Assembly: GCA_963849325.1 (NCBI GenBank)
Contig: CAWKHF010000010.1
Coordinates: 256,001 to 320,000 of the forward strand
DNA length: 64,000 bases
Direction: 5' to 3'
From: an uncultured Planctomycetota bacterium
Lineage (GTDB): Bacteria > Planctomycetota > Planctomycetia > Gemmatales > Gemmataceae
Positions within the stretch are counted from its first letter, which is position 1, and every line of letters starts with the position of its first letter. The translations under genes were made by a program, and so were the position numbers. Shown in pieces: positions 2,829-56,747 of the stretch. A model generated the notes under the pieces. The model was not told where the DNA came from and ran no database searches. It was given only the letters and a program-made list of their open reading frames with translations.

Positions 2829-5430
2829 ATGTCATCCCTTGGGACAGCCCCTGAGAAAGACCACCGGACGGAGGGGCGATCCCGTTCGGTCTCGTGCCTG
2901 CGTCAACGGGCGGTCGCGGCCGTGGTGGCGGGGATGGAAACGCTGTTGCTCCTCCTGATCTGTCTCTCGCCGTGGACTTACGGGGCCGTCCATCCCGGCT
3001 TCGAGTTCCTCCTCGATTGCGGCGTTGGACTGCTGCTGGCACTCTGGGGCGTGCGCATGCTCCTGGAAGGCCAGCTGAGATGGAAAAAGAGTCCGGTGGC
3101 TCTATGTTTGGCCGGTCTGTTTCTGGTCGGCGTTTGGCAAATTCTACCATTGCCCCGTTCGTTGCTCGACCCTCTGTCGCCGGCCACGGCCCGGCTGTAC
3201 CACCAACTCTTGCCCGAGCAGCCGGAGACCGTCTCGGGAGTCACCGACCAACCGACTCACCGCCCGACCGCTGGTTCGACGCTCAGCCTTTACCCCGGCG
3301 CGACCCGGCGCGAACTCGCCCGCCTGCTGGCGGTGTTCCTGGTCTTCGCCGTCGTGCGCAACAACCTCACCGCGCCGGCCGTGCTGGTCCGCCTCAGTGT
3401 CGCCGCTCTGATCAATGGCACCCTGTTGGCGTTGTTCGCCCTCGCCCAGTATTTCAGCGCGCCTCCGCACACCATCTACTGGCGTTACCCGACTCTGGGG
3501 CAAGTGTTCGGTCCGTTCATCAACCGCAATCACTTCCCCTACTACGTTAACCTGTGCATCGGCCTGGGGTTTGGGCTGCTCGTCAGCCGAGGACGACACA
3601 GCCGGGCGGATCGACGCTCCGCGGAGCAGCCCAACGCCCTGGTCCGCATCCTGCACGATCCCCTCGCCCTGTGGATCGGCGCCGCCCTGGGGCTTATGGT
3701 CAGCAGCGTCGTCGTCAGTCGTTCGCGCGGGGGAATGTTGGCCCTGGCCGGCGCGGCCGTGGTCTGCGCCGTCCTCGGCCGACTGCGCCGGGCCGGTTCA
3801 TTCCGGCTCGGTACGGTGCTGCTGGTCGGCTCGGTGGCCCTCGCCCTGTGCGGCTGGTTTGGGCTGGATCTCGTCAAGGAGCGTCTGGGCACCATCTGGA
3901 CCGGCGAAGCCTTCGACACCCGGCTGCCGTTGTGGCTGCGCTCCCTGCCCATCGTGAGCGATTTCCCGCTCTGGGGGACGGGCTACGGGACCTATGGTTA
4001 CGTCGAACCGATGTACCGCGTCGAGGTCCCTCCGGGCGAGGCGTTCATCCTGTACGATCACGCTCACAACGACTATCTCGAAGTCCTGGTGGAATGCGGC
4101 ATCCCGGGGTTATTGCTGGCCCTGCTGACCATCGGGATCGTCTACCGGCTCGGCTATCGCGCGCTGAGCGTCCACCGGGACGGCCGTGGCGGCCTGGCGC
4201 TGGGGGCGCTGTTCGCCTTCACCACATTCGTCCTGCACAGCTTCGGCGAATTCGGGTCTCACGTGCCGGCCATCACCCTGATGGCGACGGTGATCTGCGC
4301 CCGATCTCTGCGCCCTGGGCCGGCGGAACCGTGTACCGAGAGAGCTGTCGGTGACAGACCCAGCGGCGGCCGGCGCCGAGGACGAATACGGCCTTCGTCT
4401 CGGCGGGACTGCCCCCGTCCTGGGGGCGGCCGCGGCCCTGTCCCTGGGGTTGGTGCTCAGCGCCGCCGGCTGGAAGGCCCATCAGATCAACCGTCTGCAC
4501 GAGGCGGCCTTCCGGGCGGGCGAGGACAACGAGGACCAACTTCGTCGCCGGGTTGCCTTGCTCGCCGCCGCCGCTCGCCTGGTACCGGACGACGCCAACC
4601 TTCTTTGCGAACTCGGACACGCCCGCACACGTCTGTTCGAGAAAACCTCCCGTGGCCTTCCGCCCCAGCGTGGTCCCGAGACGGCGGCGTCGGCGCAGGC
4701 GCTGCAAGCGTACTTGCGGGCGCGAGACGCATGTCCCATCCTGACCGACGCGCAGCTGGGCGTCGCCGCCCTGATGCCTCGTCTGGAGAAGGGGGATCCG
4801 CAAGAAGAATACCTCCGCCGTGTCAAGCTGCTCTCTCCGAGCCAGGCCGAACGCTGGTTCCTGTGCGGCCGGCTGGAGCTGGAAGCCGGACGCGAGGACG
4901 ACGCCTGGGCCAGCTGGAGGCGTTCCCTGCAGCTGTCGGATACGTACCTGTCGCAAATCCTGCCCCGGACGGTTCGGCGTCTGACGCCGGAGCAGCTGAT
5001 CGAAAAGGTACTGCCGGAGGATGCGGGTGTGTTGCTCAGCGCAGCGGCTCGCCTTCACCCGGATAGCGAGGCGGTCGAGGAACGACGCCCCTTCCTGGAG
5101 AAAGCCTTGCGCGTGCTCGACGCGAAATCGAGACAGCTCGCCGCGCGCGATTGGCGTGTGAAAGCGCTGACCCACCAGGCGCTGGGCCAACCGGAAAAGG
5201 CAGTCGAAGCGTATCGGGAGATGCTCGGCCGCGAGCCGCACCGCGTCGAATGGCGCTACGAATTCGCCCGCTACCTGTACGAACTCCACCAGCTGGACGA
5301 GTCGCGCCGCGAGCTGGTCATCGTCTTGAATCAGGATCCCAGCCACGGTTTGGCGCGGGAGTTGATCGAGACCGTCACGGCGGAACTGCTGCGCGAGAAG
5401 TGGGCCGATCGGAAAGGGAAAAGGGAATAG
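2829..5430 (+). CDS. O-antigen ligase (Wzy_C) family protein with C-terminal TPR domain; frameshift near 4305
   Basis: Motifs FGPFINRNH, SRSRGG, PLWGTGYGTY, HAHNDYLE in ORF 2781..5066; TPR helices in ORF 4351..5430 continue in another frame. Confidence 0.85.
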
Positions 5431-5497
5431 GGAATAGGGAATAGAGCGCGGCTTCCTCTCTTGCCCCTATTCCCTATTCCCTATTCCCTATTCCCTT
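5415..5497. repeat. Inverted pair of heptamer tandem repeats (AGGGAAT)n / (CCCTATT)n between convergent genes
   Basis: AGGGAAA + AGGGAAT x3 at 5415-5444 and CCCTATT x4 from 5465. Both flanking stop codons fall inside the repeats. Confidence 0.9.
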
Positions 5498-9461: not shown

Positions 9462-9520
9462 AAAGTTCTGAGTTCTGAGTTCTGAGTGAATGGCACTCAG
9501 AACTCAGAACTCAGAACTTT
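9462..9520. repeat. Perfect 27-bp inverted repeat built from heptamer (AGTTCTG)x3, between convergent genes
   Basis: AAAGTTCTGAGTTCTGAGTTCTGAGTG (9462-9488), AATGG, reverse complement (9494-9520). The wecB stop lies inside it; likely a bidirectional terminator. Confidence 0.9.
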
Positions 9521-43096: not shown

Positions 43097-43248
43097 TGAG
43101 AGTCTGTTCCCGAAGCTCCCCTCTCCCCTGTACTCAGGGGAGAGGGGTTGGGGGTGAGGGGTGAGAAACCCACGAAAAACCCGCCCCCTCACCCCAACCC
43201 CTCTCCCCCGGAGTACCGGGGGAGAGGGGCTTTCGGAACAGACTCTGA
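43097..43248. mobile_element. MITE-like element (146 bp) with 11-bp terminal inverted repeats and TGA target duplication
   Basis: GAGTCTGTTCC (43100-43110) ... GGAACAGACTC (43235-43245), flanked by TGA (43097-99, 43246-48). The interior is two inverted CCCCTCACCCC.ACCCCTCTCCCC..GGGGAGAGGGG units. Confidence 0.7.
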
Positions 43249-53963: not shown

Positions 53964-53988
53964 CAAGGATTGGCAAAGCGAGGACCGA

Positions 53989-54832
53989 ATGATTTCGCCT
54001 TCTTACTACAACTGGCGGACCGAAGAGCGGCCCGCGCCCTGGTCTGGATCGTGCTGCCGAGCGAACCTCTCCTGCCAAGAGCGGCATCGGGGTCCGCGTC
54101 TTCCTCGATGTCCCCTACCGGGTTAACGCGGGAGAGCGGCACAAGCTGGATTTGTACCTGCCCAACCAGCGGGAGTTTCCGGTAGTCGTCTTCGCACACG
54201 GCGGAGCCTGGGTTTCGGGCGACAAGGCACTGCACGGCCACCTGGGTTGTTTCCTGGCGAAGCACGGCATCGGCGCCGTGCTGGTGAATTACCGGCTGGC
54301 GCCGCAGGTGCGTCATCCCGTCCCGACGCAGGATCTGGGCCGGGCCTTCGCCTGGACGCACCGCCACATCCGCCGCCTACGGCGGCGATGCCGATCGGCT
54401 CTACCTGTGCGGCCACTCCGCGGGCGGACACAGCGCCGCGCTCTTGGGAACGGATGAATCGTTCCTGGCCGACGAGGGACTTGGCTTCGAGCACGTCCAG
54501 GGCGTGATCGCCATTAGCGGCGTTTACAAGATCCACTGGAACGTCACCCTGGCCCGTCTAGGCTTCGTCTTCCGCAACAGCGATAAGACGGCCGCCTCGC
54601 CGCTCTGGAACATCCAGGCGGGGTGTCCGCCCTTCCTGGTCCTGCCGCCGGCAAGGAGCTTTGGACGCTCTCCAGCCAGGCGTTCGCGTTTCACAAGACG
54701 CTTCTGCGGCACAAGTGCCGGTCGCGCTTGCTGGTGGCCCATGGGGAGGATCACAGCTCGATCATCCAGACCGTCTCTTCGCCCTCGGCCAGCCACGGAG
54801 AGGCGATGGTGAAGTTTATCCGGGGAGGATGA
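53989..54832 (+). CDS. Alpha/beta hydrolase (HSL / BD-FAE-like); at least 3 frameshifts
   Basis: KLDLYLP, FAHGGAW, VNYRLAP, CGHSAGGH (nucleophile Ser), AISGVY, ASP, GEDH, spread across frames. Confidence 0.75.
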
Positions 54833-54879
54833 ACGCGGTCGGTTTGGGCACTGCTATGTAACCACGTCTTGCAGCACCT

Positions 54880-55360
54880 TTCCTTGTCGAGAAGGCTTGT
54901 CCCTCCTCATTCATGATGCCGATGATCGTGTCGCATTTATCCGATAGGGGGACTTTGCCCATAAACCAGATTCAATTAGAGGTTTATGGGCAAAGCGGTG
55001 CGGTAGATGGAGGAGGGAATTGGAGAGAGAAACGAGAAGTGCGGCTGGCGGAAAATCAGCAAGGGGGTCAAATGGTCTCAACGGCTCAGGCTTTTGGGCG
55101 ATAGGCGAGGGCGAAGCGGGCAATGGGCAATTCAGGCGATGGGCGACGGGCGATTGCTGAGCCTTGGAGACCTTTTGACCCTCCTGTTTGCCGATGCCCC
55201 TCTGGACGCGAGGCTCTCTTCTCGTTCCGACGAGGGGCGAGAGACGGCGTGGACGACCGCCGTACAAAGCACCCCGGGCGAGTCTCGGGTGCGAACCAGC
55301 CAAGAAAAGGGCTGGCTTCTTAACTCGATGTCACGCTTTCGCGTGTCTCGCTTCGTGCCA
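54880..55360. ncRNA. Candidate structured non-coding RNA (unassigned family; strand uncertain)
   Basis: No credible ORF. Perfect 15-bp IR 54953-54995; 25-bp IR 55065-55181 enclosing 8 RGGCRA motifs; five short hairpins 55221-55345; adjacent sigma54-like promoter. Confidence 0.4.
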
Positions 55361-55369
55361 ATCTATGAT

Positions 55370-55386
55370 AGCATTTGGAGTGCCAA
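55370..55386 (-). promoter_or_regulatory. sigma54 (-24/-12)-like promoter
   Basis: Minus strand TTGGCACTCCAAATGCT = GG-N10-GC with TGGCAC. Palindrome AACTGTCG-N7-CGACAGTT at 55500-55522 lies at an enhancer-like distance. Confidence 0.5.
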
Positions 55387-55531
55387 AACGTCTCTTTTCC
55401 GGATCTTTTCTGCAAAGTCAATGAAAAAGAGCACTTGAGGCGAGAGGCCCATTTCGACGACAAACGGAAGGGTCGGAAAAAGCGCCGGATTTTTCGTACA
55501 ACTGTCGTATTATCCGACAGTTCGCAGAGCC

Positions 55532-55590
55532 TCCGAGCCTGAAGCGTAAGTGAAGGAAGACCAAAACTTCGCTTACGCTTCAGGCTCGGA
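55532..55590. repeat. REP-like palindrome (CCGAGCCTGAAGCGTAAG family)
   Basis: 24-bp arms 55532-55555 and 55567-55590, one mismatch; just downstream of the DUF3500 stop. Same family as 6220-6273. Confidence 0.88.
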
Positions 55591-55596
55591 TGAAAC

Positions 55597-56631
55597 TTAC
55601 TTCGTTTCGATGCCGAAGTCGCCTTTGAGGTTCCGCCAGCAGCTGTGGATGTGATTGGCGGGGTTGCCGGCCGAATCCGACTGGACGTTGAGGAACTCGA
55701 TGACGAACGTCGGTCCCTGAACGCGGTAGGTGTACGGCCGGCCAGGTTTATCCGCCTCCACGGCGAAGGCGAAATGGACCTTGTCGAGTCCGGCGGCTTT
55801 GACCTCAGCCATCTCCGCCTGCGTCACCTCGGCCGGCATGCGGTCGGCGTAAGTCTGGATCAACTGCTGGAGCAGATTGCGTTGTTTCTCGTTCATCTTG
55901 GCGGCGGGCAAGCCCTTGGCGGGTCCGACGTGCGGGACGGCCTTGGCCTGCTCGATCTCCGGATATTGCCTGGGCTGACGGGCGACCTTGCGCTGATCGT
56001 CGTCGAGGGCGGCGAACAATTCCTTGGCCAGTTCCTCCGCCTGTGGCAGCGTACGTTGTCCCTTCTTCGGCCCGCTCTTGATTTCGGCGGGGTTGGCGCC
56101 GAAGAAGGCGGGGGTCGCGGCCACGATCTTGCCGCGGTCGATCACGAAGTTCAGCGACAGGTGATGGCCCTCCACGCGCCAGCCCCACTTGCCGGCCTTC
56201 GTGGGCGTGCCGAAGATGCTGACGAAGTACCAGCCGGGATCGCGGACGTTGGCGCCATTCTTCTCCAGTTCGGCCAGCACCGCTTCCAGGCTCATGATGG
56301 TCGTCGCCTTGAGGAAGCCGGAGGCGCTGGTGCCGGCGCGAAGGAGTGCCTTGGCCGTCTCCTTCTGCTCGGCCGTCATCTGGTCGAAACGCAGCCCCTT
56401 GCGCAGCGGCTTCTTCTTATCCTGTAGCGGAACGAAGTTCCAGTTGGTCCGTTCCTTGTCGTCGAAGGCGAACAGTGTCTTGCCCTTCTGATCGCCGTTG
56501 AGACTGTTGACGAACTGGGCGGCGGTATCGCTCATGCGAACGCCGGCCGACGCTTCGTCCTTGCTCAGACAGGCCGCCCCCACCAAGCCGGCGGCCAGGA
56601 CCGACACGAACAGCAGTTGTTTGAGTTTCAT
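55597..56631 (-). CDS. DUF3500 domain-containing secreted protein
   Basis: Signal peptide MKLKQLLFVSVLAAGLVGAAC; WNFVP, YFVSIFGTP, WGWRVEGHHLSLN, TPAFFGANP, YRVQGP, NHIHSCWR. Confidence 0.88.
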   Translation of the reverse strand: MKLKQLLFVSVLAAGLVGAACLSKDEASAGVRMSDTAAQFVNSLNGDQKGKTLFAFDDKERTNWNFVPLQDKKKPLRKGLRFDQMTAEQKETAKALLRAGTSASGFLKATTIMSLEAVLAELEKNGANVRDPGWYFVSIFGTPTKAGKWGWRVEGHHLSLNFVIDRGKIVAATPAFFGANPAEIKSGPKKGQRTLPQAEELAKELFAALDDDQRKVARQPRQYPEIEQAKAVPHVGPAKGLPAAKMNEKQRNLLQQLIQTYADRMPAEVTQAEMAEVKAAGLDKVHFAFAVEADKPGRPYTYRVQGPTFVIEFLNVQSDSAGNPANHIHSCWRNLKGDFGIETK

Positions 56632-56658
56632 CTCCCCCCCTTGGTCAGATCCATAATT

Positions 56659-56747
56659 AACCACGGATAACACGGATGAACACGGATAAATACAAAAAAG
56701 TTGACTTCTTTGATTATTATCCGTGCTCATCCGTGTTATCCGTGGTT
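56659..56747. repeat. Inverted pair of CACGGAT-unit tandem repeats
   Basis: AACCACGGATAACACGGATGAACACGGATAA (56659-56689) and its reverse complement with one mismatch (56717-56747). Confidence 0.9.

Follow-up and report, generated by a model that had tools for sequence, protein, structure and literature searches.

The locus and its features

The window analysed here (the whole stretch of 64,000 nt) carries a plus-strand alpha/beta-hydrolase frame and a minus-strand DUF3500 gene. Between them, a double palindrome, a sigma-54-type promoter sequence, six hairpins (H1 to H6) and a U/pyrimidine-rich tail follow one another on the minus strand (Table 1). The hydrolase frame is in at least three pieces, and is either a pseudogene or broken by assembly frameshifts. 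We observed that the features listed in the original prediction were all present in the sequence, with offsets of no more than 1-2 nt. On the minus strand, the promoter sequence reads TGGCACTCCAAATGCT at 55385-55370.

Table 1. Features at and around the locus. Positions are those of the window, except for the repeat copies in the last line, which lie on other contigs of the same genome.
Feature	Position	Strand	Remarks
Alpha/beta-hydrolase gene, frameshifted	53970-54832	+	BD-FAE/Abhydrolase_3-like
U/pyrimidine-rich tail UUUUCCGCC after H6	55045..55054	-	probable 3' end, predicted termination
H6, long terminal hairpin	55055..55195	-	~30 bp with bulges, 67-nt apical loop 55156-55090
H5, composite hairpin	55196..55238	-	helices 4-7: 86-91% of cells paired, 10/15 pairs compensatory
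H4 hairpin	55244..55263	-	compensatory changes in 5/5 pairs
H3 hairpin GCACCC[GAGACUCGCCCG]GGGUGC	55269..55292	-	nearly invariant; UCGCCC motif in loop
H2 hairpin	55294..55317	-	compensatory changes in 6/6 pairs, 22 sequences
H1, 5' hairpin, GAAA loop	55332..55345	-	fold
Predicted transcription start	55357..55361	-	placed ~12 nt past the -12 GC, as is typical of sigma-54 promoters
Sigma-54-type promoter TGGCAC-N5-ATGCT	55370..55385	-	GG at 55384-83, GC at 55372-71
Candidate enhancer (UAS)	55482..55520	-	two adjacent ~17-bp palindromic sites
UAS proximal site CGAAAAATCCGGCGC	55496-55482	-	palindromic
UAS distal site CTGTCGGATAATACGACAG	55520-55502	-	palindrome CTGTCG...CGACAG at 55502-55520
DUF3500 gene	55597-56730	-	upstream of the RNA
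Conserved block 1			arms of the long stem, with 3-8 GGGCGA heptamers between
Conserved block 2	up to ~55320		hairpins
Conserved block 3			island AGCAY-N5-RTGCCA; minus strand TGGCAY-N5-RTGCT, a sigma-54 -24/-12 box facing the conserved hairpins
Conserved block 4	around 55482-55520		island
Repeat copies, CCCCTCTCCCCCG...CGGGGGAGAGGGG	C10:146560-146720, C12:516720-516870, C5:665540-665690, C6:217870-218080

The H6 stem (55065-89/55157-81) encloses a 67-nt loop (55090-55156) that holds exactly eight RGGCRA motifs. Their minus-strand form is UYGCCY, in most cases UCGCCC, with a spacing of 7 nt, and C accounts for 31 of the 67 loop residues. No denser cluster occurs on either strand of the 8.16-Mb genome, and the runner-up, with six copies, lay in low-complexity coding DNA. 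Another UCGCCC was seen on the 5' side of H5 and the linker preceding it.

When we searched the whole window with Rfam 15 at the gathering score, there were no matches, the CsrB/RsmZ-family models included. At E <=10, the interval 54700-55700 gave only chance matches to miRNA and lncRNA models, mostly at a repeat hairpin at 55529-55595. A tRNA/tmRNA scan was likewise empty; the original prediction had seen no tmRNA, RNase P or SRP signature. A literature search (PMC12316311 and PMC3045617 included) found no study of regulatory or small RNAs of Gemmata or Planctomycetes in the parts of the sources covered. Simple scans for sigma-70 promoters and for terminators gave none of either in 54700-55700; the terminator scan finds nothing at H6 because the 67-nt loop exceeds its limit.

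The region had been described as free of open reading frames. Taken literally this did not hold, as two mechanical ORFs (143 and 130 aa) cross it; neither has a Pfam match, and in eight same-genus relatives compared with the window we counted 6-11 indels each whose length was not a multiple of three. These frame-breaking indels, along with the absent Pfam match, indicate that the element is not coding, and a coding reading of the region was thus excluded.

Conservation, folding and strand

The distribution of the core was evaluated using DNA searches and covariance models. By DNA search, the core was present in nine of ten same-genus genomes, always in one copy and at 71-86% identity; the tenth (64% complete) had only the dispersed repeat of 55532-55591 and no core. 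In all the same-genus genomes having it, the core adjoined a DUF3500 homologue (the genomes with DUF3500 loci are all metagenome-assembled). The covariance model of the core, R1, gave one match per genome in 23 of 151 sampled genomes of the family, and a second model, R2, had matches in 20 of the 151. Outside the family, R2 was run on 120 genomes of the class, belonging to 16 other families, and gave no matches. Covariance-model matches were kept only where the promoter or the enhancer was also present, and after this filtering the RNA was found outside the genus in 15 genomes of 13 other genera, for a total of ~25 genomes and ~14 genera. This taxonomic range was computed directly, as was the single-copy status given below. 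Five matches (L034, L037, L038, L039 and L040, with E from 2.6e-4 to 5.7e-3) were rejected as false, having neither a sigma-54 box nor an enhancer match, and lying between coding-like flanks.

In the plus-strand alignment of the genus, four conserved blocks stood out amid variable sequence (Table 1), and left of ~55042 there was no conservation in any relative. The original prediction had counted a hairpin at 54901-55018 as a part of the RNA. In this hairpin, CCCTCCTCAT (54901-10) pairs with ATGGAGGAGGG (55007-17), and the inner 15-bp stem (54953-67/54981-95) is perfect. Since it is not conserved, it is genome-specific and does not belong to the RNA element; the whole interval 54880-55050 was conserved in no relative and lies outside the RNA. 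The hairpin itself is single-copy, has a 10-bp outer pairing, and is nested between the RNA 3' end and the convergent hydrolase pseudogene, where it may be a bidirectional terminator.

We also evaluated the predicted fold. For 55061-55359, the minus strand had a folding z-score of -3.2, which 1 of 200 shuffles matched; for the plus strand the score was -1.95, matched by 5 of 200. In the core alignment of 22 sequences, 93.2% of the cells were paired and 22 of 33 pairs had compensatory changes, although these pair counts were taken on alignments fitted to the covariance model, which flatters the structure. In the controls, none of 500 shuffles reached any of the five measures, and slid partners were only 31-56% paired. 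The best-conserved part of the RNA was the H3 stem, invariant or nearly so in the 22 sequences with 98.7% of its cells paired. At the position of H1, every same-genus relative carried a hairpin, the sequence being different in each. A long hairpin of the H6 type was seen at the equivalent place in all of the 22 homologues by single-sequence folding. In the 14 sequences that could be aligned by the third model, R3, 95.8% of its cells were paired and 19 of 27 pairs were compensatory; R3, the terminal-hairpin model, recovered just 5 of 15 distant homologues where expected, and the other 10 rest on the single-sequence folds. After H6, the 3' flank had UGCUGAU and a U/C-rich tail in the genus and in one distant locus (L041), and U-runs in four others (L023, L015, L027 and L033).

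The strand was assessed from the kinds of pairs. Read on the minus strand, the core had 40 G-U cells as against 17 A-C cells, and the terminal hairpin had 17 as against 5; this excess favours an RNA on the minus strand. The original prediction had taken the G-U pairs in some stems to favour the plus strand and had left the orientation unresolved; the counts favour the opposite strand. The G-U bias, the promoter direction and the tail after H6 agree with each other, and on these sequence criteria we consider the orientation of the predicted RNA to be resolved in favour of the minus strand.

A different reading is that there is no RNA gene here, and that the element works at the level of DNA, as a repeat of the heptamer simple-sequence or REP type or as an array of iterons to which a protein binds, with an unrelated sigma-54 promoter next to it. 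The genome does build many hairpins from tandem heptamers or nonamers, and a REP-like hairpin (55532-55591) begins just 10 nt beyond 55522, the right end of the originally predicted region. Against this, the element was single-copy in every genome: by DNA search, 55052-55327 was found once in its own genome and once per relative, without the many scattered copies of a REP or other dispersed repeat, and only 55532-55591 was dispersed. Further, its six helices are maintained by compensatory changes, the excess of G-U over A-C is specific to one strand, and the promoter and enhancer hold a constant spacing in 14 genera. Covariation and the presence of one copy per genome have already largely refuted a purely DNA-level element, which we regard as extremely unlikely. 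The homologues were conserved, covariation was present and the locus was single-copy; thus, none of the outcomes that the original prediction had set against itself was seen on these points.

Several kinds of repeats were observed in the course of this work. The hairpin at 55532-55591, which immediately follows the stop codon of DUF3500, belongs to a dispersed, REP-like palindromic repeat with ~40 or more copies in its own genome and many in the same-genus genomes; Rfam miRNA models match it by chance, and it is probably also a terminator. Hairpins in which a tandem array of a 7-nt or 9-nt unit faces its complement were seen at 5411-5496, 9464-9518 and 56662-56744, and also at 43136-43165, with stems such as (GGGAATA)n/(TATTCCC)n, (AGTTCTG)n/(CAGAACT)n and (CACGGATAA)3/(TTATCCGTG)3. 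Making stems from short tandem repeats thus looks like a genome-wide habit. One other dispersed palindromic family, CCCCTCTCCCCCG...CGGGGGAGAGGGG, often occurs as tandem pairs.

Predicted promoter and enhancer, and neighbouring genes

The sigma-54 -24/-12 box was kept in 20 of the 22 homologues. In 19 of the 22, a strong box was found at a distance of 51-85 nt upstream of where the model starts, and in one more at -190; two loci (L023 and L032) had only weak matches. In the genus, the promoter formed a conserved island within variable sequence in all ten of the rows covering it. Matches of such quality were rare: with a cut-off of at least 19 of 20 on our own weighted match score to TGGCAC-N5-TTGCW, there were 182 in 16.3 Mb (both strands), or ~0.001 per 100 nt of one strand.

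The candidate enhancer was computed as a gap-free 39-nt block of two adjacent palindromes, which all 21 of the 21 loci share ~100-140 nt further upstream than the promoter and whose consensus is approximately CTGTCGGAtttTCCGACA and then CGaAAAATCCGGCGC. When the paired sites were sought with a loose regular expression, 739 chance pairs came up in this genome of 65% G+C, and a profile search was used instead. The 39-nt profile found only the RNA locus in its own genome (E 1.6e-8). It also matched L070, L071, L051, L055 and, weakly, L023, none of which had been used in building it. A second match in the same genome (contig C5, E 0.02) was rejected, as it was inside coding sequence and had no sigma-54 box.

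Two dimer sites, a spacer and a -24/-12 box make up the classical enhancer-dependent arrangement, and the layout here consists of two dimer sites, an A/T-rich spacer of ~100 bp and a -24/-12 box. This suggests that the 39-nt block would be bound by an enhancer-binding protein that activates the promoter. The genome has one RpoN gene and at least 14 full-length genes for sigma-54 activators, and none of these activator genes was found within the window or next to the RNA locus.

The genes around the locus were compared among the homologues. A DUF3500 gene was upstream on the same strand at all the same-genus loci and at 8 distant ones, and absent at five (L025, L029, L030, L033 and L035). The gene downstream of the RNA was an SDR at 7 loci, a NUDIX gene at 4, a methyltransferase at 2, and a CBS and an AAA_16 gene at 1 each. 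The downstream SDR is gluconate-5-dehydrogenase/KduD-like, with scores under the curated cut-offs. At 5 loci (the window, L015, L026, L031 and L032), the downstream gene is convergent.

These arrangements bear on whether the element is a stand-alone gene or a cis-acting leader, that is, a long 5' UTR or attenuator of a sigma-54 operon, ancestrally with an SDR, in which the terminal hairpin is a regulated terminator. Sigma-54 promoters usually drive protein-coding operons, and 15 of ~21 loci have a same-strand gene within ~100-200 nt downstream, so that read-through is possible. This gene is the SDR at seven loci (G009, G007, G002, G008, L025, L033 and L041), which come from at least 4 genera. 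An altronate/galactarate dehydratase-like gene, the DUF3500 gene and a PfkB kinase (at L026) nearby would suggest the use of sugar acids. However, the promoter, enhancer and RNA are intact in the window and at L015, L026, L031 and L032 in spite of the convergent next gene. The remaining downstream genes come from at least 4 unrelated families, so that there was no constant same-strand family downstream of the kind that marks a leader or riboswitch. The terminal hairpin also carries a U-rich tail in many homologues. We consider a leader quite improbable; a module that stays intact with no gene to read into, together with the U/pyrimidine-rich tails, favours a stand-alone RNA.

The structure, promoter, enhancer and non-coding nature are supported by sequence comparison, and the RNA is a candidate for the functional class of sigma-54/enhancer-dependent sRNAs. 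Apparently, the product of this locus is a folded RNA of ~310 nt that does not code for protein and had not been catalogued in Gemmataceae, running on the minus strand from ~55359 to ~55050. A real sigma-54-dependent RNA gene is very probable at this place. The claim of the original prediction on this point, a sigma-54-controlled non-coding RNA that on the minus strand would start near 55359, appears to be well supported by the conserved promoter and enhancer and by the covarying structure in ~25 genomes. We infer the transcription of this RNA and both of its ends.

Two further loci of the same genome should be mentioned. At ~344220-344520 (+) of contig C2 (L072), the sigma-54-like box GGCACGGGCCTTGCT precedes several UCCCCC-loop hairpins and a terminator-like hairpin with a U-tail; this locus is single-copy, is kept in all of the 10 same-genus genomes, and is a second candidate for a sigma-54 C-rich sRNA. 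A third candidate lies at ~73600-73920 (-) of the same contig (L073), with a sigma-54-like box, GGCATTCGAGTTGCT, UCCCCC-type loops and a strong terminator, and its core is kept in 8 of 10 same-genus genomes. Taken along with the RNA locus, these two point to a putative class of sigma-54-driven RNAs with C-rich words in Gemmataceae.

Possible mode of action and comparison with known systems

The order of events that we propose starts with a dedicated enhancer-binding protein, which would probably occupy the double palindrome ~100-150 nt upstream of the promoter. The bound activator would then probably switch on the sigma-54 RNA polymerase at TGGCAC-N5-ATGCT. The transcript is likely to fold into five hairpins and the long terminal hairpin H6, which would probably also end transcription. 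The C-rich word UCGCCC would be exposed unpaired at three places, namely the invariant H3 loop, the H4/H5 linker and the H6 terminal loop. Through these words the RNA would act in trans, likeliest by pairing with GGGCGA-like, G-rich sites of mRNAs without Hfq; both the action in trans and the partner are proposals of ours.

The words themselves were compared among the homologues. UCGCC was present in the invariant H3 loop across the 22 sequences, and words of the CGCCC type were seen in the terminal loop of most homologues, including distant ones. The terminal loop has 3-8 motif copies within the genus and 0-2 outside it, which indicates that one older word has been multiplied in this lineage to give the array. 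The many hairpins of tandem heptamers and nonamers in this genome fit such an expansion by slippage.

Base-pairing through the C-rich words is quite possible as the mode of action, though we would not call it probable. We looked for complementary GGGCGA arrays, or other UCGCCC arrays, elsewhere in the genome and found two chance clusters of 4 exact words; with degenerate words, there were only clusters of 5-6 in low-complexity coding DNA. As there is no GGGCGA array elsewhere, the eight tandem seeds would lack an obvious repeated target, which argues against pairing. In addition, a regular 7-nt array within one loop is easier to picture as the docking site of a multimeric protein than as a seed.

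The same sigma-54 RNA could instead be a sponge or decoy, as the original prediction proposed, whose UCGCCC words titrate an RNA-binding protein, as CsrB/RsmZ do with CsrA and CrcZ with Hfq/Crc. A large unpaired loop in which eight near-identical words are spaced at 7 nt fits a sponge, as do the drift of the copy number from 3 to 8 between species with the word itself kept, and the lack of a complementary RNA array in the genome. One dedicated enhancer serving one RNA gene also recalls LuxO-Qrr, GlrR-GlmY and CbrB-CrcZ. Nine CsrA-family genes are present in the genome. One of them (C5:320684-320836) has a sigma-54 activator gene (C5:319577-320068) ~600 bp away and rpoN at a distance of 15 kb; the nearness of the activator gene would also suit a sponge. 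However, the word differs from the GGA that CsrA needs. GGA triplets in the folded RNA are found only within the stems of H5 and H6, and because the loops have no GGA, canonical CsrA binding is unlikely; a CsrA sponge was excluded on this ground. The Pfam model of Hfq had no match in the genome (84.7% complete), there is no candidate protein with a C-rich preference, and the presence of only 0-2 copies in the terminal loop outside the genus indicates that a high copy number is not ancestral. Titration of a protein is, in our view, somewhat unlikely taken as a specific proposal, and motif pairing and protein titration are about equally open as readings of the words. For the explanation as a whole (a stand-alone RNA gene, enhancer control through sigma-54, and a mechanism of mRNA pairing), which is the one that we prefer, we would put the chance a little below even.

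The wider possibility, which we think unlikely but worth stating, is that Gemmataceae, seemingly without Hfq, run several sigma-54 circuits of one dedicated activator and one regulatory RNA with C-rich words each (at least three loci here), with the terminator loop of the present RNA as an evolvable array tuned by slippage. If this were true, heptamer slippage would set the number of words and so adjust the amount of a G-rich partner (RNA or protein) that one molecule can hold. A variable heptamer array within a terminator loop is also an unusual route to changing the number of functional words in an RNA. Apart from this, a whole control module of enhancer, sigma-54 promoter, RNA and terminator can be read from the sequence and is kept over ~14 genera. 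It provides a practical starting point for work on post-transcriptional control in a phylum with unusual cell biology, and the enhancer block defines a binding site that can be used for finding the cognate activator and its signal.

Among the known systems, CrcZ/CrcY of Pseudomonas is a sigma-54/CbrB-dependent sponge of Hfq/Crc, in which the word is A-rich (CA motifs) and Hfq is needed. The RNA described here resembles it in being a stand-alone structured RNA of several hundred nt with one short word repeated unpaired, in its sigma-54 promoter with an upstream activator site (from sequence evidence here), and in the link to carbon-source genes. It differs in the word, which is UCGCCC rather than CA motifs, and in that Hfq was not found in its genome; it also has no Rfam match, no adjacent activator gene, and no homology of sequence or structure to CrcZ/CrcY.

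With CsrB/RsmY/RsmZ it shares the many copies of one unpaired word, in a number that varies by species, and a genome with nine CsrA-family genes. However, it has no GGA-in-loop motif, a different type of promoter and no Rfam match to that family.

The RNAs sX13 (Xanthomonas) and RsaE/RoxS (Firmicute) are ~100 nt long and have CCCC/UCCC words in 2-4 loops; we know of no sigma-54 dependence for them. As in these RNAs, a C-rich word is present in several loops or unpaired stretches, could pair with G-rich mRNA, and might plausibly act free of Hfq. Here, however, the word is UCGCCC, up to 8 tandem copies are gathered in one terminator loop, and there is no Rfam match.

GlmY/GlmZ of Enterobacteriaceae (sigma-54, GlrR, IHF) offer a likeness in the promoter, an sRNA gene promoter with upstream palindromic activation sites. 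The consensus quoted for GlrR is TGTCN10GACA (PMC3045617); the sites here resemble it but are TGTC-N9-GACA, one base shorter, and there are two adjacent ones where GlrR has three. The RNA itself is not related to GlmY/GlmZ (no Rfam match), and GlmY is a RapZ decoy without repeated words. From these comparisons of sequence, we would place the RNA as a new family of a regulatory kind that is already known, in which the variable array of words in the terminator loop is the unusual part.
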